A stretch of DNA of 61,327 nucleotides from an uncultured Gammaproteobacteria bacterium (lineage in GTDB: Bacteria; Patescibacteriota; Patescibacteriia; UBA9934; GWF2-40-263), in the NCBI GenBank assembly GCA_964399675.1, contig CAYNRK010000002.1:112982-174308 (forward strand), given 5' to 3'. How positions within the stretch are numbered: the stretch's first letter is position 1; each line of letters opens with the position of its first letter. Position numbers and translations under genes: made by a program. The notes beneath the pieces were generated by a model. The model did no database searches and was not told the DNA's origin. It was given only the letters and a program-made list of their open reading frames with translations. Below are positions 1,258 to 49,703 of this stretch, in pieces.

Positions 1258-2127
1258 CTATTCAGCGACGCGGCGCTCGGGTTCTACGAGACGATCTGGA
1301 TCCCCGTGGCTCCAACATGTGAAGAGCGCAACCAGCTCGAGCAGGGTTCTGCCACCCTCTTGGAACTTTGCAGCGGCCATGTTATCCCCAGGGGACTTGA
1401 ACCGCAGAATGTCTCCGCAGAACCTGAGCAAGCGGTACTGATCCCCATACAGCTCAGAGCATTGACTCTCGTCCTCGAGACGAGCCTGAAGAGTACGGAG
1501 TCCGGCAGGTGTGAACTCGGTTTCAGACCAGCCAGACCACAGCGGAGTCTGGTGCGTAACCACGGCCCTAGCACAACCCATCAGGTCGAGACAGCTGTTG
1601 AGCAGGGCGTAGAGCGGGGAGATCGCTTCCATGACCCAATACTCTCGAAGCAGGTGGAACGCACGTGCTTCCAAAGTCGCCTTGAGCAGAAGACCTTGAC
1701 CCAGAGCTTCGTTCGAAGCCATCCTCAGACACTCCCACTCACGAGACATGAACTCGTGAGCGTTCTTCACGTCACGCGCACTGAGTCCGGCAAGAGCGTT
1801 TGGTTCGAGCGCCAGGAACATGAGAACACGCTCTCTTGCGAACTTGGTTCTGACCCTTGGCACAACGTGCCGGACCAACACCTTCTTGGCGAGCTTGCGT
1901 AGGGAGGCATCCGGTTCTACGATCTTGACCTCGCTCGCAACCTCGATAAGGAAGCCAACTGTAAGGTCACGTTCAGCACTATTCCGACTGTCGCGCTCTT
2001 GTGCTGCATGAATCAGTCCCGCAGCCTCCTCTGGACGCGTCGTGCGCCTGTATCGATTGACGATTTGAGCAATCACCATCCGGGTTCGATCTCGAGGAAC
2101 TGCGTTTGGAAAAAGCGGATCTGCCAT
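1258..2127 (-). CDS. Hypothetical protein (GC-rich, predicted mostly helical, ~289 aa)
   Basis: 299-aa ORF; start moved to ATG 2127, which follows an AAGGGAGAGG RBS. No recognisable family. Confidence 0.75.
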   Translation of the reverse strand: MADPLFPNAVPRDRTRMVIAQIVNRYRRTTRPEEAAGLIHAAQERDSRNSAERDLTVGFLIEVASEVKIVEPDASLRKLAKKVLVRHVVPRVRTKFARERVLMFLALEPNALAGLSARDVKNAHEFMSREWECLRMASNEALGQGLLLKATLEARAFHLLREYWVMEAISPLYALLNSCLDLMGCARAVVTHQTPLWSGWSETEFTPAGLRTLQARLEDESQCSELYGDQYRLLRFCGDILRFKSPGDNMAAAKFQEGGRTLLELVALFTCWSHGDPDRLVEPERRVAE

Positions 2128-2238
2128 GATTTCCTCTCCCTTTTGCGTGCTTAGCATTTGTGCTTAGCACAGGATTGGTTACATGTTCACTCGCTGCCGG
2201 CGAGCACGGGCCAACGCTTTGTGCGCCTAACAAAAAAA

Positions 2239-2323: not shown

Positions 2324-2357
2324 GTACATTAAATCCTCATATGAGGATTTAATGTAC
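2324..2357. repeat. CATATG-centred perfect palindrome (34 bp, subtype Y)
   Basis: GTACATTAAATCCT-CATATG-AGGATTTAATGTAC. Confidence 0.9.
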
Positions 2358-2401: not shown

Positions 2402-2437
2402 TTGATGTAAAGTTTCCATATGGAAACTTTACATCAA
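2402..2437. repeat. CATATG-centred perfect palindrome (36 bp, subtype X)
   Basis: TTGATGTAAAGTTTC-CATATG-GAAACTTTACATCAA; same outer arms as the sites at 30161 and 30756. Confidence 0.9.
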
Positions 2438-2471: not shown

Positions 2472-2513
2472 AAGTGTACATTAAATCGCCATATGGAAGT
2501 TTAATGTACACTT
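2472..2513. repeat. CATATG-centred imperfect palindrome (42 bp, subtype Y)
   Basis: AAGTGTACATTAAATCGC-CATATG-GAAGTTTAATGTACACTT; overlaps the uppP stop codon. Confidence 0.85.
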
Positions 2514-6826: not shown

Positions 6827-6948
6827 TGTCATCTCGAGCGAGACAAAGTCGAGCCGAGAGATCTCGAACATGCGAGATTTCTCCGCTCCGGCCCGTCTGA
6901 CGGGCCTCCGGTCGAAATGACATAATAATTACTCGGTCGAGATAACAA
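6827..6948. repeat. Family B nested palindromic element
   Basis: TGTCATCTCGAG...GAGATTTCTCCGCTCCGGCCCGTCTGACGGGCCTCCGGTCGAAATGACA; core shared with 15983 and 39609. Confidence 0.85.
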
Positions 6949-21976: not shown

Positions 21977-22060
21977 AGTTCCCCTCCTTTTCAAGGAGGG
22001 GTTAGGGGTGGTTATGATTCAGAATACTAACCCCCCATAGTCCCCCTTGAGAAGGGGGAC
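21977..22060. repeat. Family A inverted doublet (intergenic)
   Basis: 40 bp identical to 1097-1136, plus a second inverted unit. Confidence 0.85.
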
Positions 22061-22069
22061 ATTTTAATA

Positions 22070-22683: not shown

Positions 22684-22727
22684 ATTCCAATACTATTCTT
22701 TACGATCGACGATAATAGTATTGGAAT
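22684..22727. repeat. CGATCG-centred imperfect palindrome (44 bp)
   Basis: ATTCCAATACTATT outer arms around CGATCG at 22703-22708. Confidence 0.75.
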
Positions 22728-22788
22728 CTTTTCTGCTTCCTAAGGGCTTTCTGTTGAAACAAATTCCAAAAAAACAAAAACTGAATCT

Positions 22789-22826
22789 CTTATAAAATAC
22801 TTCACGATCGTGAAGTATTTTATAAG
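22789..22826. repeat. CGATCG-centred perfect palindrome (38 bp)
   Basis: CTTATAAAATACTTCA-CGATCG-TGAAGTATTTTATAAG. Confidence 0.9.
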
Positions 22827-22907
22827 TATTTTGTCTAATCGCCTCGTGGTATCTTTGTGGTATCTTTGTTGAAACAAATCACTAAAACTGATATCCTTCT
22901 GTCACTT

Positions 22908-28376: not shown

Positions 28377-28402
28377 AAGCTGTCGATTATTTTCGCTTTG
28401 CA

Positions 28403-28456
28403 AAAAAACACTTATACCAACCGTGACGATCGTCACGGTTGGTATAAGTGTTTTTT
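28403..28456. repeat. CGATCG-centred perfect palindrome (54 bp)
   Basis: AAAAAACACTTATACCAACCGTGA-CGATCG-TCACGGTTGGTATAAGTGTTTTTT. Confidence 0.9.
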
Positions 28457-28534
28457 ACCGACCTTTTATGAAATCAATATTTACCAAAATAATCCAAACA
28501 AAAAAACTCCGAAATTGTTCTCGGGGTTTTTTAA

Positions 28535-28592: not shown

Positions 28593-29162
28593 ATGCTGGT
28601 TCTGGTAACGGGAATCGGAAACGTTGGCAAAAGTCACTATCGCCGGCTTCTCGTCCAGACTCTGAGAAGCAACAGATTCAAAGCAGAGCACTTTGACGTT
28701 GACCGATTCGCAGAACTGCGCGATCAAACAGACAGTGATCTACTGACGATCCTGCCTGATTGCCTCGAAGACGACGTGATCTACATCGTTGAAGACGTGC
28801 ATGCTCCAACAGACCAGGCGCTGCTTCCGCTTGAGCGCTACGACCTCATCTTCCTCGTGACAACCGATCTGCGATCGCATTTGCGCTTCTGGTTTGGACG
28901 CGCGCGACACTGGCACAAAGACGGCAAGTTTGACTGGGATCCTGAAACCGGATTCAAAGGCAGCGGTCGTTCAAATGACTGGCGGAATCTTCCGAAAATC
29001 GTCCGGACTGTTCTGCGTCATCTTGCACACCGCAAGCACCTGGAGCATGACAGGGTTTCGCTAAGCGGTTGCGGGGTCATCACTCAAAAGGTGGAATCTG
29101 TCTGGTCGAAAAACGGCCCAGTGTTTCCACCAATCTCACTCATGCTCTTCCCGCCTCTTTAG
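28593..29162 (+). CDS. P-loop NTPase / nucleotide-kinase-like protein (GC-rich)
   Basis: LVTGIGNVGKS Walker A; GGAGGGAG RBS; CCGCCT/AGGCGG terminator with T-run at the stop. Confidence 0.75.
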   Translation: MLVLVTGIGNVGKSHYRRLLVQTLRSNRFKAEHFDVDRFAELRDQTDSDLLTILPDCLEDDVIYIVEDVHAPTDQALLPLERYDLIFLVTTDLRSHLRFWFGRARHWHKDGKFDWDPETGFKGSGRSNDWRNLPKIVRTVLRHLAHRKHLEHDRVSLSGCGVITQKVESVWSKNGPVFPPISLMLFPPL

Positions 29163-30117
29163 GCGGTTTTCTTATTTGTGGCAATAATTTTGAAATAGTT
29201 CTCCAGGCAAACTCTGCATCTTCATCATCTTTAGTGATCTCAATCGCTCTTAACATAAAAGATATTGCACGTTCAACAAGTGCAAAACGAATTGCATCAG
29301 GAACCAAGTTTCTTTCTTCCTTTGTTAATTTTCTTTTTGTTTCATAACCTTCAAGCAAAGCCTGGAACCGAGTCTTATCCCATTGTTTCCAATCATCAAT
29401 AAAACACCAACCGCGTGCAGCTTGGCCAAGGTCAAGTAAAAGTGTTCCAAAATAAGCGCGATCAAAATCTAAAATCGAAACTATTTTAGAACCTTGCCAA
29501 AGCACATGACGCTTTCCCAAATCCTCGTGCAATATTCCTTGTGGAAGCGAGTTTGGAAAATTTAAAAATTCAAGTTCAAATTCAACTTGGTTTACAAACT
29601 CTTTTGCAAAATCATAATCAGAAGACAAAATTACTTGCTTCTTTTTTTCAAAATAAGCTTTTGTGTTTTCAAGACCCCAAACGTGTTTGCGAACATGCTT
29701 TGTTTTAAAATCTTTTGTTAACGAATGCATCCAACCTATTGTTTCACCAAAAGTTCGAAGCTCTTCCAATGTTGGATCTTCCTTTGCATGAGCATCAACA
29801 AATTCCCGCAAGTATCCAAAACGACCATCCCAACCAACCACAAACTCGTTAGTTCTCGTTTTTATAATTTTTGAAACAGGAAAATTATTTTTATAGAGAT
29901 GTTGCAATATCTCAACCTCTGATTCAATCTCTTCTTTTGACCGCCAACGCACACCCAAAGGATTAAAGCGCAATATATAACTACTATTTTCTGTCTTAAT
30001 TTTGTACAAAAAATTACCACTTGTAGATATTGATTCAATCCCAATGATTTCACCAAAATCGTATTGACCAAGTATTTTCTCAAGTTCCTCTTTTGGTATT
30101 TCTTGTTTTGTAAGCAT
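29140..30117 (-). CDS. APH/choline kinase-like phosphotransferase (homoserine kinase type II-like)
   Basis: EIGIESIS..GNF.YKI, HEDLGKRHVL, ILDFD. Confidence 0.8.
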   Translation of the reverse strand: MLTKQEIPKEELEKILGQYDFGEIIGIESISTSGNFLYKIKTENSSYILRFNPLGVRWRSKEEIESEVEILQHLYKNNFPVSKIIKTRTNEFVVGWDGRFGYLREFVDAHAKEDPTLEELRTFGETIGWMHSLTKDFKTKHVRKHVWGLENTKAYFEKKKQVILSSDYDFAKEFVNQVEFELEFLNFPNSLPQGILHEDLGKRHVLWQGSKIVSILDFDRAYFGTLLLDLGQAARGWCFIDDWKQWDKTRFQALLEGYETKRKLTKEERNLVPDAIRFALVERAISFMLRAIEITKDDEDAEFAWRTISKLLPQIRKPPKEAGRA

Positions 30118-30160
30118 GTCTTTATTATTGATTGTAATGTAAAAGTGTAAACTTTAACAA

Positions 30161-30196
30161 TTGATGTAAAGTGACCATATGGTTAGTTTACATCAA
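30161..30196. repeat. CATATG-centred 36-bp imperfect palindrome overlapping the stop of the Cas2/PaaX-like gene
   Basis: TTGATGTAAA-GTGAC-CATATG-GTTAG-TTTACATCAA. Confidence 0.9.
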
Positions 30197-30742
30197 TGCT
30201 TCTTTTCCTATGTAAACCTTTACCCAATCAATAATACCCAAAAGATGTGCAAGGGCAACTGTGTCCTCGACAACATCTTTTTTTGTTGCAAAAACACTTA
30301 ACTGGATCATACGAAAATCTGCTGAGCAAAGAAATCGTCGCCAATAATTTCGTGCCTTGGTTGCACCGTTTGGAAAATCAAACATCACAATACATTGCCC
30401 GTCGTCTGGCAAATCAGTTTCTTCATTTCTAATTGAATCTTTTAAAACAGAAATAATTGCATCAGCGTTAAGTTTAACAATAACCTCTCCTCCCCGCTCT
30501 CTATCCTCAATCCATTTTTTCCTACGCAGTTCTTTTAATACCCGATTCTGTTTCCATCTTTCAATATCATCCTCATACATTTCATTCCACTGCTTTTTTG
30601 CTAAAGAAGCTTCATAGAAATATTTTGGTCCAGTATACGACCAATCAAAAAGAGGAGAAAGTAAATCTTGACCCTCCAATATTTTTAACAAAATTTTACT
30701 CTGAAGAGTTTGCCTCTTCTTTAACCTCTTTTTCTTTAACAT
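30188..30742 (-). CDS. wHTH plus Cas2/PaaX-C-terminal-like protein
   Basis: LKELRRKKWIE...VKLN (wHTH-like), then IVMFDFP..ARNYWRRFL...FRMIQLSVF, matching the Cas2/VapD/PaaX pattern; start MLKKKR at 30742. Confidence 0.75.
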   Translation of the reverse strand: MLKKKRLKKRQTLQSKILLKILEGQDLLSPLFDWSYTGPKYFYEASLAKKQWNEMYEDDIERWKQNRVLKELRRKKWIEDRERGGEVIVKLNADAIISVLKDSIRNEETDLPDDGQCIVMFDFPNGATKARNYWRRFLCSADFRMIQLSVFATKKDVVEDTVALAHLLGIIDWVKVYIGKEALM

Positions 30743-30755
30743 AGTGGAAAATAGA

Positions 30756-30791
30756 TTGATGTAAAGTTTCCATATGGTCATTTTACATCAA
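30756..30791. repeat. CATATG-centred 36-bp imperfect palindrome upstream of the Cas2/PaaX-like gene
   Basis: TTGATGTAAA-GTTTC-CATATG-GTCAT-TTTACATCAA. Confidence 0.9.
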
Positions 30792-30826
30792 TTCACTCTT
30801 TGTTCCAAAACCAAAATAACACAATA

Positions 30827-38169: not shown

Positions 38170-38288
38170 ACTCTGATTCTCTTAACACCACAACACAAAT
38201 AACAACCGATTCATTTTAAGTGTTAATGGAACTATTTTTAGTTTAACATATTGTGCCAAAAAGCACTTTTAGCAACCTAAATTTCTTA

Positions 38289-38320
38289 GACTATTTTACA
38301 ACGATCGTCGTAAAATAGTC
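38289..38320. repeat. CGATCG-centred palindrome (32 bp, 1 mismatch)
   Basis: GACTATTTTACAA-CGATCG-TCGTAAAATAGTC. Confidence 0.85.
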
Positions 38321-38380
38321 CTTTTAAATTTTTTCAAATGTTTTGTTCATAAAAATTTATTACCGAAATACCACCTGGTT

Positions 38381-38413
38381 CTAACCCCTTGTAGCCTCCC
38401 TTGAAAAGGAGGG
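38381..38413. repeat. Family A single unit downstream of tgt
   Basis: CTAACCCCTTGTAGCCTCCCTTGAAAAGGAGGG. Confidence 0.75.
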
Positions 38414-38433
38414 TTTCCTTCAAAATTATGTCA

Positions 38434-39597
38434 CTAAGAAAGTGCGTTACGCAAAGAATGCATGAGATCAAGATAAAAAGCCAAATTGTGGATTGTTGCG
38501 AGTCTTAAAGCCAAAATTTCGTTTACTTGAAAAAGGTGACGTAAATATGCTTTTGATGTTGTTGCGCAAGTGACACATGAACAATGCGGATCAATTGCTG
38601 AATCATCAAAAGCAAATCGTTCGTTTGTGATTCTTGTTTGATTATAAAAATCTAAGCTAACCCCCCTTAATCCCTCCTCAGTGCTAACCCCCCTTAATCC
38701 CCCCTTGAAAAGGGGGGAAAATACTTTGCTTGGATCTTGTTTCCAGGTAAACAAAGTTCCGTGGCGTGCGTTTCGAGTTGGAATAACACAATCAAACATA
38801 TCAACTCCAAATGAAACATACTGAACAATTTCTTCTGGCATACCACCACCCATAAAATACCGAGGTTTGTCTTCCGGTAAATTGTCGCAAGTAAACTTTG
38901 TAAATTTGTAACAGTCTTCGCGCGGTTCACCAACAGACAAGCCGCCAATTGCGTAACCATCAAATCCAATTTCTGTTAATCCTTCTGCTGATCGCTTTCG
39001 CAAATCTTCATGAATTCCGCCTTGGACAATGCCGAAAAGCTTTTGATCATAACCCCCCTTAATCCCCCCTTGAAAAGGGGGGAGATTTTCCTTGCACCTC
39101 TTTGCCCATCTTAGAGATCGCTCCATTGCATCTTCAAATCGATCGTAACTGGATGTTCCTGCAGCAACATCATCAAACTGCATGATCATGTCCGCGCCAA
39201 TTGCAGCTTGCATTTCCATGGATTTCTCAGGAGTGAGTTCGATTCTTGATCCATCAACATGCGACTGAAACAAAACCCCCTCTTCAGTAATCTTATTCAA
39301 CTTTGACAAACTAAAAACCTGATAGCCTCCGCTATCAGTTAAAATCGGTTTATTCCAATTCATGAATTTGTGAAGTCCTCCGTACTTCTTCATTGCATCC
39401 ATTCCAGGTCTTAACAAAAGATGGTAAGTATTTGAAAGCAAAATCTGTGCTCCCAGATCCTCCATGTCTTTTGAAGACATTGTCTTAACCGCACCCTTTG
39501 TTGCGATTGGCATGAAAAACGGCGTTTCAATTTCACCGTGCGCTAGTTTGATTTTCCCTCTTCTTGCTTTTCCAGTAGTTTTTAAAAGCTCAAACAT
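38434..39597 (-). CDS. tgt: tRNA-guanine transglycosylase
   Basis: ETPFFMP, SNTYHL, LTDSGGYQVFS, GIVQGG, GYAIGGLSVGE, DMFDCV, CSCxxC...HN Zn site. Confidence 0.97.
   Translation of the reverse strand: MFELLKTTGKARRGKIKLAHGEIETPFFMPIATKGAVKTMSSKDMEDLGAQILLSNTYHLLLRPGMDAMKKYGGLHKFMNWNKPILTDSGGYQVFSLSKLNKITEEGVLFQSHVDGSRIELTPEKSMEMQAAIGADMIMQFDDVAAGTSSYDRFEDAMERSLRWAKRCKENLPPFQGGIKGGYDQKLFGIVQGGIHEDLRKRSAEGLTEIGFDGYAIGGLSVGEPREDCYKFTKFTCDNLPEDKPRYFMGGGMPEEIVQYVSFGVDMFDCVIPTRNARHGTLFTWKQDPSKVFSPLFKGGLRGVSTEEGLRGVSLDFYNQTRITNERFAFDDSAIDPHCSCVTCATTSKAYLRHLFQVNEILALRLATIHNLAFYLDLMHSLRNALS
38657..38718. repeat. Family A repeat with partial tandem duplication, in frame in tgt (SPLFKGGLRGVSTEEGLRGVS)
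   Basis: CTAACCCCCCTTAATCCC occurs twice, followed by CCCCTTGAAAAGGGGGG. Confidence 0.85.
39050..39084. repeat. Family A repeat in frame in tgt (LPPFQGGIKGG)
   Basis: TAACCCCCCTTAATCCCCCCTTGAAAAGGGGGGAG. Confidence 0.85.
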
Positions 39598-39608
39598 ATC
39601 TTAGACCC

Positions 39609-39767
39609 TGTCATCTCGACCGATCCAATTTTCTTCTTGTCATCCCGAGCGGAGCCCGGCAGCTGCCGGGCGAAGCCGAGGGATCTCGAATATGCGAGAT
39701 TTCTCCGCTCCGGCCCGTCTGACGGGCCTCCGGTCGAAATGACATAATAATACTCGCTCGAGATGAC
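39609..39767. repeat. Family B nested palindromic element
   Basis: Near-identical to the reverse complement of 15983-16144. Confidence 0.9.
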
Positions 39768-39803: not shown

Positions 39804-40856
39804 TTACTCTTTTAAACCCAACTCATCTAACAATTTCTTTTCCTGGCGGCTTAACTTTTTTGGAGTAACAACATTAACCTGAACCATATGATCTCCTCTT
39901 CCGTGTCGAGTTGGCACACCTTTTCCTTTGAGTTTAAATTGGCTGCCTGATTGAGTTCCGGATGGAATTTTTAAATCAACTGTTCCATCAACTGTTTTGA
40001 TTTCAATAGTATCTCCCAAAGCAGCTTGTGTGAATCCAATATCAGTTTGAGTATACAGATCAGATCCATGACGCTCAAAACCGGGATCGCGTCTTACGTG
40101 CAAACGCACAAACAAGTCCCCTGTTTCACCGGCAAGAATTGCCTCGCCTTCTCCTCGCACTCTTAAAATACTTCCGTCTTCTATGCCAGCGGGGATTTGA
40201 ATGTTTAACTTTTTGTGCTCTTTGTTTACTCCTGCCCCATGACAAGTAGAACACTTCTCTTTTGGAACCTCACCTTGGCCATTACACTCTGCGCATGCGT
40301 GCTTGCGCTGCATTGTTCCAAAAACAGTTCTTTGAGCTGAAACCTGAACACCGGAACCATTACATCCGGTACACGTTTTCAAACCCTTTGCAGGCTCGGC
40401 TCCGTTTCCACTACATCGCTCACAATTTTCAGGTCGTGTAATTTCGAGTTCTCGCTCACCACCAAAAACAGCTTCTTTAAATTCTAAATCAAAATCAACT
40501 TGAATGTCTTGCCCGCGACGTTTTTGTTTACGAGTTCTTCCGCCAAAGCCTCCAAAAATGTCTCCAAAAATGTCGCCCAGATCCTCAAACCCAGCTCCGG
40601 AAAATCCTTCAAAACCTTGCCCTCCTCCAAAACCCTGGAAACCCTCAAAGCCGGCTGAGCCAAATTGATCGTACTGTTTTCGTTTTTTATTATCACTAAG
40701 AACTTGATAAGCTTCATTGATTTCTTTGAACTTTTCTTCATTTCCATCCTTTTTATCCGGATGGTATTTATGTGCAAGTTTACGAAAAGCACGCTTAATC
40801 TCATCAAAAGAAGCGCCTTTGTCTACATCTAAAATTTTGTAATAGTCCTTGGACAT
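39804..40856 (-). CDS. dnaJ: Chaperone DnaJ
   Basis: J domain with HPD, G/F region, four CxxCxGxG repeats. Confidence 0.97.
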   Translation of the reverse strand: MSKDYYKILDVDKGASFDEIKRAFRKLAHKYHPDKKDGNEEKFKEINEAYQVLSDNKKRKQYDQFGSAGFEGFQGFGGGQGFEGFSGAGFEDLGDIFGDIFGGFGGRTRKQKRRGQDIQVDFDLEFKEAVFGGERELEITRPENCERCSGNGAEPAKGLKTCTGCNGSGVQVSAQRTVFGTMQRKHACAECNGQGEVPKEKCSTCHGAGVNKEHKKLNIQIPAGIEDGSILRVRGEGEAILAGETGDLFVRLHVRRDPGFERHGSDLYTQTDIGFTQAALGDTIEIKTVDGTVDLKIPSGTQSGSQFKLKGKGVPTRHGRGDHMVQVNVVTPKKLSRQEKKLLDELGLKE

Positions 40857-40870
40857 AGATTCAGAACAAA

Positions 40871-40899
40871 ATGGTACTTTATCTTGGCCTTTTTTTCAA
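40871..40899 (-). promoter_or_regulatory. dnaJ promoter TTGAAA-N17-TACCAT (no CIRCE)
   Basis: Read directly. Confidence 0.5.
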
Positions 40900-40962
40900 G
40901 TGTTGAATCAAAAAAATCTGTTATACTACTTCATACTGATAAAACATTTTAGAACCTTTTAT

Positions 40963-43900
40963 ATGTCCAAACACATGGGGGTTAAACTTTTAAAAACAAG
41001 CGGCATCTTTTTTGCACTATTTATAGCTCTGTCTGCATCAGTTGCATTTGCTGCAGATGGGCCGCGATTTTCAAATGAAGACATTGACAACATCCTTCAG
41101 GCGCAACAAGAAAACTTTGCAATAGTAAAAAAATGCGATGTTGATTCGTTTGTTCCAATGGACCCTGATGGAAGTATTACAAAAATTGAAGTTCTTGGTT
41201 TGGAAGATGGTTATTGCAAATTAAGAGCCCACACATCAACTGAAAGAGCAGAATATTTATTGCCAGAAGAAGTATACAAAAACATTTCTGATATAGAAGA
41301 TTTGTTTAAAGGAGAATGCTCTGGCGACTGTGGAAATGTGGAAGAAGCAAGTGAAGCACCAGAGCCGGCTGATGAAAGCGAACAATGTGTACGAGATTGT
41401 ATTGTTAGAAATTGTAGCCTTAGCTCGTTGGAGTGCGAAAGGCTGAACAAAGACGCATGTGATATTGAATGTTATGGAGAAGCGCCTTCAACAGAAGACA
41501 TGAGTGAGGAGGAGCTTTGTATTTTAGAGTGTGTTGGTGACGATATAATTTGTTCTGCTGGCGAGGGCGGTGAACAAAATCCTGAATGTGAAGAATGTGC
41601 AAACAAATGTTCGGTACTTTATGAAGGGCCGTGTCTGACTGATGAACAATGGAAGCTAAAAGAAACTGCGTGTTTGGCAAGAGGCACAACATGGTCAGCA
41701 GATGAAGTTAAAGGAGATTCTGGTGAAGGTTATCAATGTGTGGTGAATCTTGATTGTGTAGATCATTCTGATGAATGGGGTGATGATGCTGGCACAGGAC
41801 CCGCTAGTTATGAAAAAGGACATGAGCCAAGTGAGGATCAGGTTTATTGGTGGGATTATGAAGAAGAAGAAGAGGAGGTTGAATTAGAAATCGAAGAGGA
41901 AGTAGAAGTTGATCGAATTGACGACAAGCTAATTCTAAAAACAGATGAAACCGAAATTATTGTTGAAGATCGGTCTGAAGAAATAATTGCTGAGTACTTA
42001 GACAAAAATGAACGTGTAGAAAAAATTGAATTGCTAATGGAAGATGAAAAACCAATATATAAAGTTAAAACCATTGAACAAAAGAAGTTGCTTGGTCTTT
42101 TTTCAATAAACATGAGAATAGACAAAAAAATAGATGCCGAGAATCTGGATCTTATTAAGGAAGAAAAACCTTGGTGGGCGTTTTTAACAAGCGAAGAGCT
42201 TAAAGATCTGCGGCCCACTTTTATTAGTCATGAACCTGATCAACAAAAGGATGAGGCAGATGACCTTGCTGAACCAAGTGGATATGGCAGTGATGTCTAT
42301 ACTGGAAAGGCCACAAATGAAGAAGCGCTGGATACTGAACCTTTGGATTATGAAACTGATTGCAGTCCTCTGCCTGAAATTGGTACACCGGAAAATGCAG
42401 TTCTGCAGGATACAGAACTGGGACAACATGCATATTATAATGAATCAGATTGTGAAGTGATCCAACGTGATAGTTACAAAGAAAAAGTGATTGAACAGGC
42501 AGAGGAATACTACAATGAACTTTCCGGAGTTTATCTTCAAATGAAAAATGTTCTTAAAGAAACTGAGGCAAAAGCAGAGGATGCAAAATCAAAACTTGAT
42601 AGATGCATTGGAACTTCTGTTGGTTCAAGCAATAATCAACCAGGAGAAACCGATATAAATCATATTTCAGGCATTCTCATAAAAATGAGGGAGTTGGCAG
42701 TACAAAGCTCAAGCCCGGACATTGCACAACATTCAACTTATTATTCCTCAGACTATGTAGTCTCAGGCAATCTGAATAACATGTACCACTCTATAAGTTA
42801 CGCTTATATTGATTTGTACAAGTTTGACAAAATTAATCTCACCTTGAATAAATATTTGGATTTTGTTTTTGAAGTATGTGAAAGTGGGGCTTGTCTTTCG
42901 CCAGACATGAAAGAACATATTAAAGAAATGATTGAAGAAGATTTGGCGAGTTTACAAGAATTTGTTGATAATGTTTATCAGGATGCACTTGATTCACTTG
43001 AAGCATATGGAAATCTTCAAAGTCGCGTAAAGGAACTGTCTGAGGGTGAGAGTTGTAGCGATTATCTAAATGAGTACTATTATAATTCTAATGGAAAACG
43101 AAAAGAAGGTGGCGCCACTGAATATAATGATCAGGAGCTGCTCGGGGATGTAACTTTTGATGTTGGTATTGAGGATTCTGAAGATGATTCCGGGGTCGTA
43201 AGGATAACGTCAGAAGATGATTCCTATTTATCAAAAGAAGATAATCGATTTATTGTTGAAAAGGAAGATAAGAGTCATGAGTTTGATGAAGATGTGATTG
43301 CCGAACTGATCGAAGAAAAAGGTGAAGATGTTCGAAGTGTTGAGCTTGGTTTCGAAGATGATGAGCCTGTTTTAAAAATCAACAAAATAGAAAAAAAGAA
43401 CTTGCTTGGATTTATTCCAATAACTCTGGAAGAGACATCTATTATTGATGCTGAAACTTTAGAAGAAACAGACATTGACAAACCTTGGTGGGCGTTTTTG
43501 GCAAGTGAAGAAGATGAAAACGAAGAAGAAGCAAGTGAGGAGGAGGAAGATGAGGTAGCCCCAGGCTTTAGCCTGGGCGAAGAGGAGGAAGAAGATGAAG
43601 GGAATAATTGGTTTAATTCTTTATTACTGCTTTTTTCAAATGAGGATGAGGGAGATATAATTTGCGGAGATAATTTTTGTCATGAAAGTGAATATGAATC
43701 TTGCCCGGCTGACTGCACCACAATATGTGGAGATGGAATGTGCCAGACACAGCTTGGAGAGTCATGGAATAATTGTCCGCAAGATTGCGAGCCTTATGAG
43801 GAAGAAGAGATAAATAGCGTATGCGGAAATGGTGTTTGCGAAATGGGAGAAAATCCTGATGTGTGTGCTCAAGATTGTGGGGCTTGCGGAGATGGGCTTT

Positions 43901-45399
43901 GTGGAAATCATGAAGTAATGGCCGGAGATAATTATTGTCCTCTTGACTGTATTGAACCTTGTGGCAATCAAAAATGCATGGGTGGTGAAACTTATTTAAG
44001 TTGTCCTGTTGATTGCGGAATTTGTGGTGACAGTTTCTGTGGTTTTATGGAGAATGCTCAGAACTGTCCAAACGACTGTAAGGGAACGTGTGGAAATACT
44101 ATTTGTGAAATAATGGAAAACTTAGAATCTTGTCCTGTTGACTGTAAACCACCATGTGGAAACAACGTTTGTGATGGCAGTGAAAATCCTGACAACTGCT
44201 GGGTTGATTGTGGACCATCTGAACTTACATATAAAGAGAATAATTGTGGAAATGGTGTCTGCAATGGAGGTGAAAATCCTGAAAATTGTGCAACAGATTG
44301 TGGTTGGTGTGGAGACGGTACGTGTGGATTCGATGAGCTGGCCTCCCTTCTCTGTCCAAGCGACCATCCAATTTGTTTAAAAGACTTTGGAACTTCTCCG
44401 TGGTGCGCAGTTGGAATTGATTGTGGTTCAGATTGTGGAAATGGAATTTGTAATGTTGGAGAAAATTCCAAGTCATGTCCATTTGATTGTTTAGTTTGTG
44501 GAGATGGTATTTGTGCTCTTACTGAAACCACAGAAAGTTGTGAAAATGATTGTCCGGACGTTCTACTTAGTGGATGTGGAGATGGCGAATGCTTGGGGTT
44601 AGAAGACAGTGCAAACTGCGCTGCTGATTGTGCTTCAGGGTGTGAAGATGGAACATGTTCGAGTAAAGAATCAATACTGAGTTGCTCTGCGGATTGTAAT
44701 TTTTCGTGTGGAGATGGCGTTTGCACTGTAGGTGAAGATTGTGATCAGGATTGTGATTTTAATTGTGGAGATGGAGTTTGTTATGGAGCTGAAACTGTAA
44801 ACAGTTGTCCAGACGATTGCTCAATGTATCAACAAAAAGAAATAACTTATGCTGCAGATGGAGAATTTTGTGGTGATGCAGAATGTACTCAAAGTGAAAA
44901 CCAAACAAGTTGTGCATTAGATTGTGAATTTACGTGTGGAGATGGAGTTTGTAGTATTGGTGAAAGTAATGCGTCCTGTAATGCTGATTGCGATCCCTCC
45001 TGTGGGAATGCGCAGTGTGAAGTGGGCGAAGGCAAGGATGTTTGTCCAAAGGATTGCGGATGGTGTGGTGATGGTTTCTGTAGCGAAAATGAAAGCCTTG
45101 AAATTTGTCCACAAGATTGTGATGCATGTGGAAATTGGATCTGCGATTATTTTGAAGATGAAACTTCCTGTTCAGTAGATTGTAAGGTTGAACCAATAAC
45201 AACAAATCCAATGTGCGGCTTTGCAGAGTGCGGGGATGGTCAAGGTTTTTGTGTAAAGAGTTGTGGACTTTGTGGCGACTGGGTATGTGCACCAAGTGAA
45301 AAAGGAGTTTGTGATCTGGATTGTTCTTCTGCGTGTGGAAATGAAATCTGCGAAGCAGACGAGTCAACAGAAAACTGTCCATCTGATTGTTCTTCTTAA
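40963..45399 (+). CDS. Large secreted/surface acidic protein with ~24 Cys-rich CG(D/N)GxC..C..DC repeats and two KPWWAFL-type domains
   Basis: Signal-peptide-like N-terminus (FFALFIALSASVAFA); repeats counted by hand from 43663; start moved to ATG 40963. Confidence 0.85.
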   Translation: MSKHMGVKLLKTSGIFFALFIALSASVAFAADGPRFSNEDIDNILQAQQENFAIVKKCDVDSFVPMDPDGSITKIEVLGLEDGYCKLRAHTSTERAEYLLPEEVYKNISDIEDLFKGECSGDCGNVEEASEAPEPADESEQCVRDCIVRNCSLSSLECERLNKDACDIECYGEAPSTEDMSEEELCILECVGDDIICSAGEGGEQNPECEECANKCSVLYEGPCLTDEQWKLKETACLARGTTWSADEVKGDSGEGYQCVVNLDCVDHSDEWGDDAGTGPASYEKGHEPSEDQVYWWDYEEEEEEVELEIEEEVEVDRIDDKLILKTDETEIIVEDRSEEIIAEYLDKNERVEKIELLMEDEKPIYKVKTIEQKKLLGLFSINMRIDKKIDAENLDLIKEEKPWWAFLTSEELKDLRPTFISHEPDQQKDEADDLAEPSGYGSDVYTGKATNEEALDTEPLDYETDCSPLPEIGTPENAVLQDTELGQHAYYNESDCEVIQRDSYKEKVIEQAEEYYNELSGVYLQMKNVLKETEAKAEDAKSKLDRCIGTSVGSSNNQPGETDINHISGILIKMRELAVQSSSPDIAQHSTYYSSDYVVSGNLNNMYHSISYAYIDLYKFDKINLTLNKYLDFVFEVCESGACLSPDMKEHIKEMIEEDLASLQEFVDNVYQDALDSLEAYGNLQSRVKELSEGESCSDYLNEYYYNSNGKRKEGGATEYNDQELLGDVTFDVGIEDSEDDSGVVRITSEDDSYLSKEDNRFIVEKEDKSHEFDEDVIAELIEEKGEDVRSVELGFEDDEPVLKINKIEKKNLLGFIPITLEETSIIDAETLEETDIDKPWWAFLASEEDENEEEASEEEEDEVAPGFSLGEEEEEDEGNNWFNSLLLLFSNEDEGDIICGDNFCHESEYESCPADCTTICGDGMCQTQLGESWNNCPQDCEPYEEEEINSVCGNGVCEMGENPDVCAQDCGACGDGLCGNHEVMAGDNYCPLDCIEPCGNQKCMGGETYLSCPVDCGICGDSFCGFMENAQNCPNDCKGTCGNTICEIMENLESCPVDCKPPCGNNVCDGSENPDNCWVDCGPSELTYKENNCGNGVCNGGENPENCATDCGWCGDGTCGFDELASLLCPSDHPICLKDFGTSPWCAVGIDCGSDCGNGICNVGENSKSCPFDCLVCGDGICALTETTESCENDCPDVLLSGCGDGECLGLEDSANCAADCASGCEDGTCSSKESILSCSADCNFSCGDGVCTVGEDCDQDCDFNCGDGVCYGAETVNSCPDDCSMYQQKEITYAADGEFCGDAECTQSENQTSCALDCEFTCGDGVCSIGESNASCNADCDPSCGNAQCEVGEGKDVCPKDCGWCGDGFCSENESLEICPQDCDACGNWICDYFEDETSCSVDCKVEPITTNPMCGFAECGDGQGFCVKSCGLCGDWVCAPSEKGVCDLDCSSACGNEICEADESTENCPSDCSS

Positions 45400-45854: not shown

Positions 45855-45891
45855 ACTCGTTACTTAGCGAACCTGATCCCTCTTTCAAACC

Positions 45892-45986
45892 AAAAATACT
45901 TATAAAATACTTCTCGATCGAGAAGTATTTTATAAGTATTTTTTTCTAAAGCAAAACAAGCCTACTCGGCTTGTTTTGCTATTGTT
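45892..45986. repeat. Module: perfect 52-bp CGATCG palindrome plus AGCAAAACAAGCC hairpin (copy 1)
   Basis: AAAAATACTTATAAAATACTTCT-CGATCG-AGAAGTATTTTATAAGTATTTTT, then AGCAAAACAAGCC-TACTC-GGCTTGTTTTGCT. Confidence 0.9.
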
Positions 45987-46046
45987 ATATTGGACATAGA
46001 AAGAAAGGACGCCCGTTGGCTGAAAAACCAAACGGGCGCAGATGCG

Positions 46047-46313
46047 TAGTGGAGCGACCCGGAGTCGAACCGGCGCCTCCCTTCCAGAAACCCAGCAACA
46101 GCTCTTCCCAACAGGGTTGAGACTTTTCAGTGTGACGGTGAGTCTTTCACCCCTCCGTCCTCCTCCCGCGCCTACCACTACTCGCGGTACTGGTTCAACA
46201 CGGACGCTCTCTGCCTGAGCTAATCCACACTTACTTTAGTGTCAGCCGCTCCTCGACTGATCTATTGCCTTCGTTCCAGAGGACGCTCTTCCCAATGTTG
46301 AGCTTGTCGCCCC
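46047..46313 (-). ncRNA. 267-nt tRNA-like RNA with Ala-type acceptor and an extended anticodon-arm domain (tmRNA-like or intron-containing tRNA; unresolved)
   Basis: 5' GGGGCGA pairs with 3' TCGCTCC-A (G3:U70); GCTC/GAGC D-stem; GGTTCGACTCC T-arm; long-range helices CCTCT/GGAGG, GGAAC/GTTTC, GGCAATAG/CTGTTGCT. Confidence 0.6.
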
Positions 46314-46327
46314 TAACTGCAGATCGA

Positions 46328-46356
46328 AGATTACTTCACCTAAGTGTCCATGTCAA
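46328..46356 (-). promoter_or_regulatory. Promoter TTGACA-N17-TAATCT of the tRNA-like RNA
   Basis: -10 element 14 nt upstream of GGGGCGA. Confidence 0.65.
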
Positions 46357-46375
46357 GTTTGTTTTAAAAACCAAA

Positions 46376-46468
46376 AAAAATACTTTGAAAAAAGTTCACG
46401 ATCGTGAAATATTTTCAAAGTATTCTTCTAAAGCAAAACAAACCTACCCGGCTTGTTTTGCTATTGTT
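46376..46468. repeat. Module: CGATCG palindrome plus AGCAAAACAA hairpin (copy 2), overlapping the YbaK-like stop
   Basis: AATACTTTGAAAAAAGTTCA-CGATCG-TGAAATATTTTCAAAGTATT, then AGCAAAACAAACC-TACCC-GGCTTGTTTTGCT. Confidence 0.85.
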
Positions 46469-49555: not shown

Positions 49556-49664
49556 TGTCATCTCGACTAAGGCCGAAGGCCGCACGGAGAGATCTCGAAT
49601 TTTGTTTAAGTAATTCGAGATCCCTCGGCTTCGACCCGTCGAACGGGTCTTCGCTCGGGATGAC
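49556..49664. repeat. Family B element between grpE and dnaK
   Basis: TGTCATCTCGAC...GAGATCTCGAA...TTCGAGATCCCTCGGCTTCG...CGCTCGGGATGACA. Confidence 0.8.
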
Positions 49665-49703
49665 AAGAAAAACGATTAACTCAGTTAGGGTGACAGTTTA
49701 TAA

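Follow-up and report, generated by a model that had tools for sequence, protein, structure and literature searches.

What is the function of a small gene that encodes a winged helix joined to a Cas2-like domain and that is enclosed, at its start and at its stop, by two copies of one and the same 36-bp palindrome? This question is raised by a locus in a stretch of 61,327 nucleotides from a patescibacterial contig (CAYNRK010000002.1), which is referred to as the window in the following. The initial annotation had likened the locus to REP/RAYT systems, meaning that the protein was suggested to bind, process or mobilise its cognate palindromes. When the locus was considered together with its protein family, the domain architecture, the bracket of two palindromes, the family-wide conservation of this bracket and the co-variation of motif and protein were observed directly, and on balance we lean towards a PaaX-like autorepressor with two operators enclosing its own gene, a reading derived from sequence data. 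The argument is built on the following features, given with their window positions:

30188..30742, minus strand: gene of the 184-amino-acid (aa) protein, stop codon included (30188-30190), ATG at 30742
30756..30791, no strand: upstream cognate palindrome, putative autoregulatory operator; ends 13 nt 5' of the ATG and has a counterpart family-wide
30161..30196, no strand: downstream cognate palindrome; covers the final two codons and the stop (TTG ATG TAA)
2402..2437, no strand: orphan cognate copy, a perfect 36-bp palindrome in the intergenic region from uppP to a 299-aa gene

A PaaX-type protein without effector domain

The longest open reading frame (ORF) starts with an ATG at 30781, within the upstream palindrome; the start at 30742 was preferred because the public gene calls and the homolog alignment support it, the same 184-aa product being called on 8 contigs of one species. 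Residues ~13-106 of this product constitute an ArsR-type winged helix and residues ~116-180 a Cas2-like PaaX_M domain, i.e., the protein is PaaX minus its C-terminal effector domain. The Pfam model PaaX_M (PF20803) matches the window protein with 25.5 bits at a cut-off of 24 and was found in 37 of 40 family members (best E 6.6e-15), and the Cas2 models stay below their cut-offs (PF09827, 19.8 vs 23.8; TIGR01573, 21.7 vs 24.5). No match to PaaX_C was obtained for the 184-aa protein, which stops ~4 residues past the last strand of its Cas2-like domain.

The AlphaFold (AF2) model of the protein has a mean pLDDT of 90.1, and the best full-length match that Foldseek returned for it from the PDB is E. 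coli PaaX (8A39, E 7e-4, probability 1.00, 186 columns), the TM-score being low (0.38) as the domain arrangement and the C-domain differ. Cas2 chains match the C-terminal 70 residues with probabilities of 0.99-1.00. Consistent with this bipartite structure, the family profile aligns with the ArsR/SmtB repressor CzrA over residues 18-108 (E 4e-5) and with Cas2 over residues 115-151 (E 1e-4). D122, P124 and S149 do not vary in the 40-member alignment (26% mean column identity), and G84, R131, R135 and W173 are nearly invariant, with the consensus of the Cas2-like domain reading LVxFDFPxxAxxARxxWRxFLxxxGFxxxQLSVW. The two domains described earlier, a winged helix and a Cas2-like domain carrying the Asp of FDFP, were thus borne out by Pfam, by structure prediction, by the profile search and by the invariance of D122.

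The statement that neither cas1 nor an array is present likewise stood, since no cas1 was found among the called genes 10 kb either side of the gene and no CRISPR-like or tandem array in the 61-kb window. PADLOC reported only weak Cas2 matches to the Cas2-like domain and no defence system. For an HUH/Y1 domain, no Pfam or NCBIfam match was obtained, and the invariant columns contain no conserved His-x-His or Tyr.

The cognate palindrome in the window

Scanning the 61 kb for the pattern TTGATGTAAA-N5-CATATG-N5-TTTACATCAA gave exactly three matches (2402-2437, 30161-30196 and 30756-30791) as compared to none in 100 dinucleotide-preserving shuffles of the window, so that the gene is indeed delimited by two homologous 36-bp palindromes, as had been annotated. 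The three copies agree in each of the 26 arm and centre columns and differ in 5 of the 10 spacer columns, and for this confinement of variation to the spacers a hypergeometric p of ~7e-4 was calculated (own count, three window copies). In the two copies that flank the gene, the spacers lack self-complementarity, and their mismatches do not belong to the G.U type. Because arms and centre are conserved, whereas the spacers drift, are non-complementary and carry mismatches other than G.U, the palindrome is better understood as a duplex-DNA operator than as an RNA hairpin or cruciform; the hairpin or cruciform substrate that had been considered initially is argued against by these asymmetric spacers. 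The window contains 16 long palindromes, with 0-1 in shuffles, and hence a palindrome as such is not special; what is specific is the pairing of the motif with the gene.

The orphan at 2402-2437 was confirmed, and it has 12 of 13 further bases in common with the gene-side flank of the downstream copy, looking as if it were a relic of a module's 3' end. Relatives with the same centre and other arms are located nearby, also as annotated:

2324..2357, no strand: different-arm palindrome (GTACATTAAATC) with CATATG centre; resembles the cognate motif of the L015 homolog
2476..2509, no strand: second different-arm palindrome (GTACATTAAATC) with CATATG centre; adjoins the uppP stop codon

The palindrome at 2324-2357 probably serves a paralog whose gene lies outside the window; paralogs of the 184-aa protein were found neither in the window nor in the 3.7 kb beyond it. 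Both different-arm palindromes reside in 63-nt direct repeats (2300-2362 and 2452-2514, 83% identical) that share the flank TTTTCAAGACTCA, and together with the orphan between them the two repeats provide three operator-like sites in 190 bp, 5' of the 299-aa gene (1258-2157, minus strand), which is GC-rich and unannotated.

Two further explanations of the CATATG class were considered and rejected. CATATG is not avoided in the window, as a restriction-modification system would suggest (15 observed vs 9 expected), and the palindromes do not qualify as intrinsic terminators, being devoid of T-runs, with the upstream copy coming after a real terminator. Rfam returned one tRNA only for the window at gathering thresholds, and in E-value mode it gave spurious microRNA matches on the palindromes.

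The bracket throughout the protein family

A word-indexed search retrieved only the protein itself, and with a profile five proteins; the family was recovered by exhaustive search, which yielded 415 representatives at E <= 1e-3, nearly all of them 160-220 aa long. For scanning loci the alignment of 40 sequences proved too diverse, and a closer alignment led to six genome and five metagenome loci. In total, 15 distinct homolog loci were gathered, whose proteins are 25-47% identical, and the genomes from which the bracketed loci come range from 41 to 62% in G+C content (GC).

Upon inspection, a related motif was found next to the ATG as well as at the stop, adjoining or covering it, in 14 of the 15 loci, whereby the motif differs from locus to locus; the single exception, L023 (27% identity), has no bracket. 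Local alignment of the upstream with the downstream region of the same locus gave scores of 19.5-39 in 11 of 12 loci, as compared to a mean of 8.4 +/- 1.8 and a maximum of 16.5 for non-cognate pairs taken from different loci. The motifs are as follows:

L007: AAAACGCG-TATATG-CGCGTTTT
L009: GACATTCAAT-N4-CATATG
L011: TTTGTTA-CATATG-TAACAAA
L015: ACATAAACTTCT-CATATG-AGAAGTTTATGT
L017: GAACCAAAAA-N4-CATATG-N4-TTTTTGGTTC
L010: ACGTATTTGTTCGTAC and GTACGAACAAATACGT
L012: perfect 35-nt direct repeat
L021: TTTGGTCCGATCGGACCAAA; module between ftsA and ftsZ
L024: arm9-N6-TGATCA-N6-arm9; stop codon inside the centre
L025: bracket of two copies upstream and one downstream
L026: bracket present

The palindrome centres are 556-660 bp apart across loci, which is simply the gene length, and complementarity reaches to about +/-18 nt, often dipping at offsets 3-7. 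The centre hexamer follows a deep split of the protein tree (84% bootstrap), being CATATG in one clade and CGATCG, TGATCA or GTAC in the other, and protein similarity correlates with motif similarity (Mantel p ~0.004). That homologs should be flanked by palindromes co-varying with the protein had been predicted; this was borne out, and hence there is a protein-specific palindrome code, as had been postulated along with it. The tree itself is star-like with deep branches, and four genes that are syntenic do not form a single supported clade.

Regarding the downstream copy, an operator of the next gene was considered and rejected as a general explanation, as the next gene is convergent in six loci (L007, L008, L010, L016, L024 and L026); in consequence, the downstream copy must concern the gene's own 3' end. 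In the window, this copy (30161..30196) sits just 5' of a promoter-like site (30151..30124) for an APH-like kinase gene. The initial annotation had contrasted its proposal with an ordinary PaaX repressor that has one autoregulatory operator: the protein does model as PaaX-like, but its operator is double and brackets the gene family-wide. In the literature searched, this arrangement was not found described.

Promoter-like signals and the favoured mechanism

One further feature connects the upstream palindrome with transcription of the gene:

30780..30808, minus strand: promoter-like TTGGAA-17-TAAAAT, its -10 in arm and spacer of the upstream palindrome; a consensus match only

The hexamer TAAAAT is given only by the spacer of the upstream copy, the other two copies reading TAAAGT and TAAACT. 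The ABC transporter gene upstream has a GC-rich terminator of its own at its end (30853-30831), which precedes the upstream palindrome. Hexamer pairs embedded in the upstream palindrome were also identified in L008, L009, L012, L016, L025 and L026, and a -10 hexamer (>=5/6 match) lies 8-9 nt before the ATG in 5 of 15 family genes as compared to 2 of 67 control ORFs. A Shine-Dalgarno sequence is absent in 14 of the 15 genes, hence some of them may be leaderless. Given this overlap of the upstream copy with promoter-like hexamers, autorepression has the best support among the mechanisms. The neighbours of the gene encode an ABC exporter, an APH-like kinase, RecR, YbaB and DnaB; paa genes are absent here and likewise at the homolog loci, where no conserved partner gene was found either.

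The suggested mechanism assumes that the gene product is a dimeric, sequence-specific DNA-binding protein of the PaaX type, with the Cas2-like domain probably serving as dimer or oligomer module. Its cognate site would be the 36-bp palindrome, read as duplex DNA via the two 10-bp arms and the CATATG centre. Bound to the upstream copy, the protein would occlude RNA polymerase and in this way repress its own transcription, as PaaX does in E. coli, where its operator is TGATTC-N27-GAATCA and its own promoter, Px, is repressed by steric hindrance (PMC9493321). The downstream copy is envisaged as a second operator, which most likely would allow for a ~0.6-kb repression loop via dimer-dimer contacts and which may also, or alternatively, block transcription across the 3' boundary of the gene, and the orphan copy 28 kb away may be either one more target or a relic. 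From sequence signatures and the PaaX precedent we infer DNA binding and promoter occlusion; looping or a roadblock at the downstream copy is put forward as conjecture. Specific binding thus stands on much firmer ground than the role of the downstream copy, for which a loop with the upstream site, a roadblock and a cassette boundary are the candidates.

Several points weigh against this reading. The promoters are consensus matches only, and it is not evident what physiological output would follow from a regulator whose binding is mainly confined to the surroundings of its own gene; nor was a conserved partner gene found. In most loci the downstream operator abuts the stop codon, which fits a cassette boundary too, and the invariant Asp and Ser as well as two conserved Arg of the Cas2-like domain hint at a role beyond dimerisation. 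Sister paralogs in one metagenome-assembled genome (MAG), L008 and L009, each possess their own palindrome pair, and at a syntenic slot the module is either there or missing as a whole. The GC of the gene is ~7 points below that of the locus in 14 of 14 loci, which is common in accessory genes, although a Lys-rich composition could explain it. Finally, the arm centres are ~26 bp apart, i.e., ~2.5 helical turns, a spacing that does not readily suit a simple dimer.

Alternative explanations

Part of these points are taken up by the assumption of a selfish cassette, which we regard as rather unlikely. Here, palindrome, gene and palindrome would constitute a minimal mobile or excisable element, whose protein synapses the palindromes while the Asp of the Cas2-like domain allows for cutting or recombination at the central hexamer; orphan palindromes would be empty sites, target sites or scars. 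That the bracket fits closely at either end of the ORF in 14 of 15 loci is in line with this, as are the invariant D122, the lowered GC of the gene (14 of 14 loci), the separate palindrome pairs of the paralogs L008 and L009, the module between ftsA and ftsZ and the orphan's retention of 12 of 13 bases of the gene's 3' end alongside. In the window, L007 and L016, the outer halves of the two palindromes are more alike than the two halves within each copy, as an element of this kind would suggest, but the order is reversed in L009, L010, L017 and L021, meaning that the pattern fails in at least four loci. With regard to GC, the family gene tracks its host (r = 0.91).

A further argument for a cassette comes from synteny. 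Going by the taxon names of the orthologs of the ABC transporter next to the gene, the window comes from a Candidatus Uhrbacteria (Patescibacteria). In Uhrbacteria the gene order ClpB-GT4-DUF192-L21-ABC-slot-RecR-YbaB-DnaB was identified, in which the module occupies the ABC-RecR slot in the window, L007, L015 and L017, while gene and palindromes are both absent in L018, L019 and L020. The genomes compared are distant, as their ABC orthologs are only 60-67% identical, so that plain gene loss explains presence and absence as well as insertion does. The comparison of filled with empty sites, which had been proposed as a check, gave no polymorphism among same-species contigs from different samples, the module (6 contigs) and the orphan (5 contigs) being identical throughout; presence and absence differ between distant genomes only. 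As for the content of the slot, it is variable among Uhrbacteria: an APH-like kinase gene and two small genes (29140-30117, minus strand) are found in the window, and TSP3-repeat, or HD and UDG genes, or nothing in L018-L020.

Further results stand against a cassette. The same protein was never found in different contexts, P0001 (8 contigs) and P0048 (4 contigs) each having one context and L013-L015, from three metagenomes, sharing a single one. In ten other loci, of 5-10 kb each, the cognate motif does not recur within 5 kb either side, and with one cognate orphan in 61 kb the palindromes did not spread in the DNA covered. No integrase, transposase or recombinase gene is located near the module, and a scan of viral contigs together with phage and plasmid protein searches revealed no phage, plasmid or viral-contig relatives. 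Members that are 25-47% identical in a star-like tree speak against any recent spread. Taken together, mobility of the palindrome-gene-palindrome unit is not supported, and the REP/RAYT-like mobilising or processing of palindromes is not supported either, given that an HUH/Y1 domain, identical copies elsewhere and phage or plasmid relatives are all missing from the results above. The more specific version, in which a winged-helix-guided Cas2 fold of the Patescibacteria cuts or recombines at the centre, excises leaving a solo palindrome (2402-2437) and reinserts, appears slightly less probable still. If true, it would represent a relative of Cas2 that is not part of CRISPR and has a DNA-targeting activity of its own, and a new kind of minimal selfish element.

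Comparably improbable is a single-chain effector of the toxin-antitoxin or defence type, in which the winged helix would shut off a harmful Cas2/VapD-like nuclease domain via the two operators, the module being an accessory, fast-evolving gene. The variable slot amid housekeeping genes fits this assumption, and so do the GC below that of the locus, the missing conserved partner gene and the conserved Asp and Arg residues of the Cas2-like domain with D122 being invariant. The family gene also evolves faster than its neighbour, being 37-41% identical between syntenic loci as compared to 60-67% for the ABC ortholog. On the other hand, the PADLOC result contains no defence system, an antitoxin-like partner is not found, and these residues may be needed to contact the DNA backbone or to form the dimer interface, as in Cas1-Cas2 complexes.

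Control at the RNA level has to be considered as well, as RNase activity has been reported for Cas2-family proteins. The palindromes would then act as 5' and 3' hairpins of the mRNA, which a Cas2/VapD-type RNase fold binds or cleaves, thereby setting stability or translation. A DNA palindrome yields an RNA hairpin, copies are present at both ends of the transcription unit, and no GC-rich terminator is located 3' of the gene in the window. These points are outweighed by the spacers, which are non-complementary with mismatches other than G.U, by the predicted -10 hexamers within or after the upstream palindrome, which together with the leaderless appearance of several genes would place the 5' copy outside the mRNA, by the N-terminal domain being a DNA-binding winged helix of the ArsR/PaaX type and by the orphan's location outside any module, leaving this explanation quite unlikely. 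It is highly improbable that generic terminators or repeats of the genome flank the gene by chance, because, even though the window holds 16 long palindromes (0-1 in shuffles) and its CGATCG-centre class resembles bidirectional terminators and brackets a tmRNA-like gene, a locus-specific bracket recurs in 14 of 15 homolog loci from genomes of 41-62% GC, the upstream copy follows the bona fide GC-rich terminator of the ABC gene, A-run or T-run flanks are missing, the motif occurs nowhere else in the flanks, and the co-variation seen in the sequences contradicts it.

Other repeats and genes in the window

Next to the CATATG class, a second class of palindromes with CGATCG centre and 36-54 bp in length was identified:

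22688-22723: CGATCG-centre palindrome, with the arm10-N5-hexamer-N5-arm10 layout of the CATATG class
22784-22831: CGATCG-centre palindrome
28398-28461: CGATCG-centre palindrome
38287-38322: CGATCG-centre palindrome
45888-45947: CGATCG-centre palindrome
46376-46427: CGATCG-centre palindrome

Several of them are perfect and carry A-run and T-run flanks, resembling bidirectional terminators. As CGATCG is the centre in another family clade (L021, L025), some window copies may be sites of paralogs encoded elsewhere. Two CGATCG palindromes, each adjoining a hairpin GCAAAACAAGCC-N5-GGCTTGTTTTGC (45941-45986 and 46423-46468), bracket a GC-rich non-coding stretch (45960-46370, minus strand) whose 3' end is tRNA-like and which contains a tmRNA match below threshold (46047-46153, 19 bits, E 1.2e-5); it was missed by ARAGORN and at Rfam gathering thresholds.

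Hairpin repeats composed of a C-run and a G-run, TAACCCCCC..CCCCCCTTGAAAAGGGGGG, are located at 1148-1184, 2679-2715, 22027-22063, 38381-38417, 38685-38721 and 39050-39086, with further members at 613-660, 1097-1144 and 21977-22024. A 78-nt repeat with internal hairpins occurs twice (6852-6929 and 39674-39751, 97% identical) and is accompanied by two shorter relatives (16063-16122 and 49614-49672); each of the four copies is located just 5' of a minus-strand gene, and they may represent a shared leader or regulatory RNA element. An ORF of 1516 aa (40849-45399, plus strand), the C-terminal third of which consists of many diverged Cys-rich repeats (CGDG-C-x-ENxxxCxxDC), probably encodes a large surface protein.

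Significance

To our knowledge, regulators of the Patescibacteria (Candidate Phyla Radiation, CPR) are almost unstudied. The family described here comprises ~415 clusters at 50% identity, each member of which appears to carry its own binding site twice beside its gene. It hence offers self-labelled protein-DNA pairs for a winged-helix recognition code and is a possible source of orthogonal repressor/operator pairs. A conserved arrangement of two operators enclosing the regulator gene had no prior description for PaaX-type proteins in the literature searched. With respect to the Cas2 fold outside CRISPR, the family retains the Cas2 Asp/Arg signature, yet by all sequence evidence it would be transcription-factor-like.

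Comparison with known systems

REP/RAYT and IS200/IS605 elements share with the module a small gene flanked by cognate palindromes and extra copies elsewhere in the genome. They differ in employing a Y1 HUH transposase that acts on single-stranded hairpins, and REPs occur in hundreds per genome, whereas the window module has no HUH domain, three cognate copies in 61 kb and spacers that are not hairpin-compatible.

In phage lambda, the gene of the CI repressor lies between OL and OR, and a protein-mediated DNA loop tightens autoregulation. The likeness consists in a repressor gene between two operator sets, with looping being a conjecture for the module; the fold, the prophage context and the three sites per operator are different.

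Cas2 and VapD proteins are alike in the ferredoxin-like beta-alpha-beta-beta-alpha-beta fold, in the Asp at the end of beta1 and in the Q-x-S-V-W/F of beta2-3. In Cas1-Cas2 complexes the Cas2 dimer lies along duplex DNA. The window protein, by contrast, falls below the Cas2 cut-offs, is encoded without cas1 or array and is fused to a winged helix.

The ArsR/SmtB repressors are dimeric autoregulators which bind inverted repeats in their own promoter, and their member CzrA resembles the window protein in the winged helix, as identified by the family profile. ArsR proteins form dimers by means of their own helices, respond to metals and recognise 12-2-12 sites, whereas here a Cas2-like domain is appended and the site spans 36 bp.

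The best structural match over the whole protein is PaaX, the phenylacetyl-CoA-responsive repressor of E. coli and Pseudomonas (PDB 8A39, 3L09), in which a winged helix is likewise followed by a Cas2-like middle domain (PF20803). The putative operator resembles that of PaaX in being a long palindrome (~36-39 bp) with half-sites far apart, and repression of the own promoter, known for PaaX (PMC9493321), is predicted here. The window protein differs in lacking the PaaX_C effector domain, which binds phenylacetyl-CoA, as well as paa genes nearby, and in keeping the Asp of the Cas2-type FD(F/I)P motif. Its putative operator, finally, is distinguished from that of PaaX by a conserved central hexamer and by occurring in two copies that bracket the gene family-wide.

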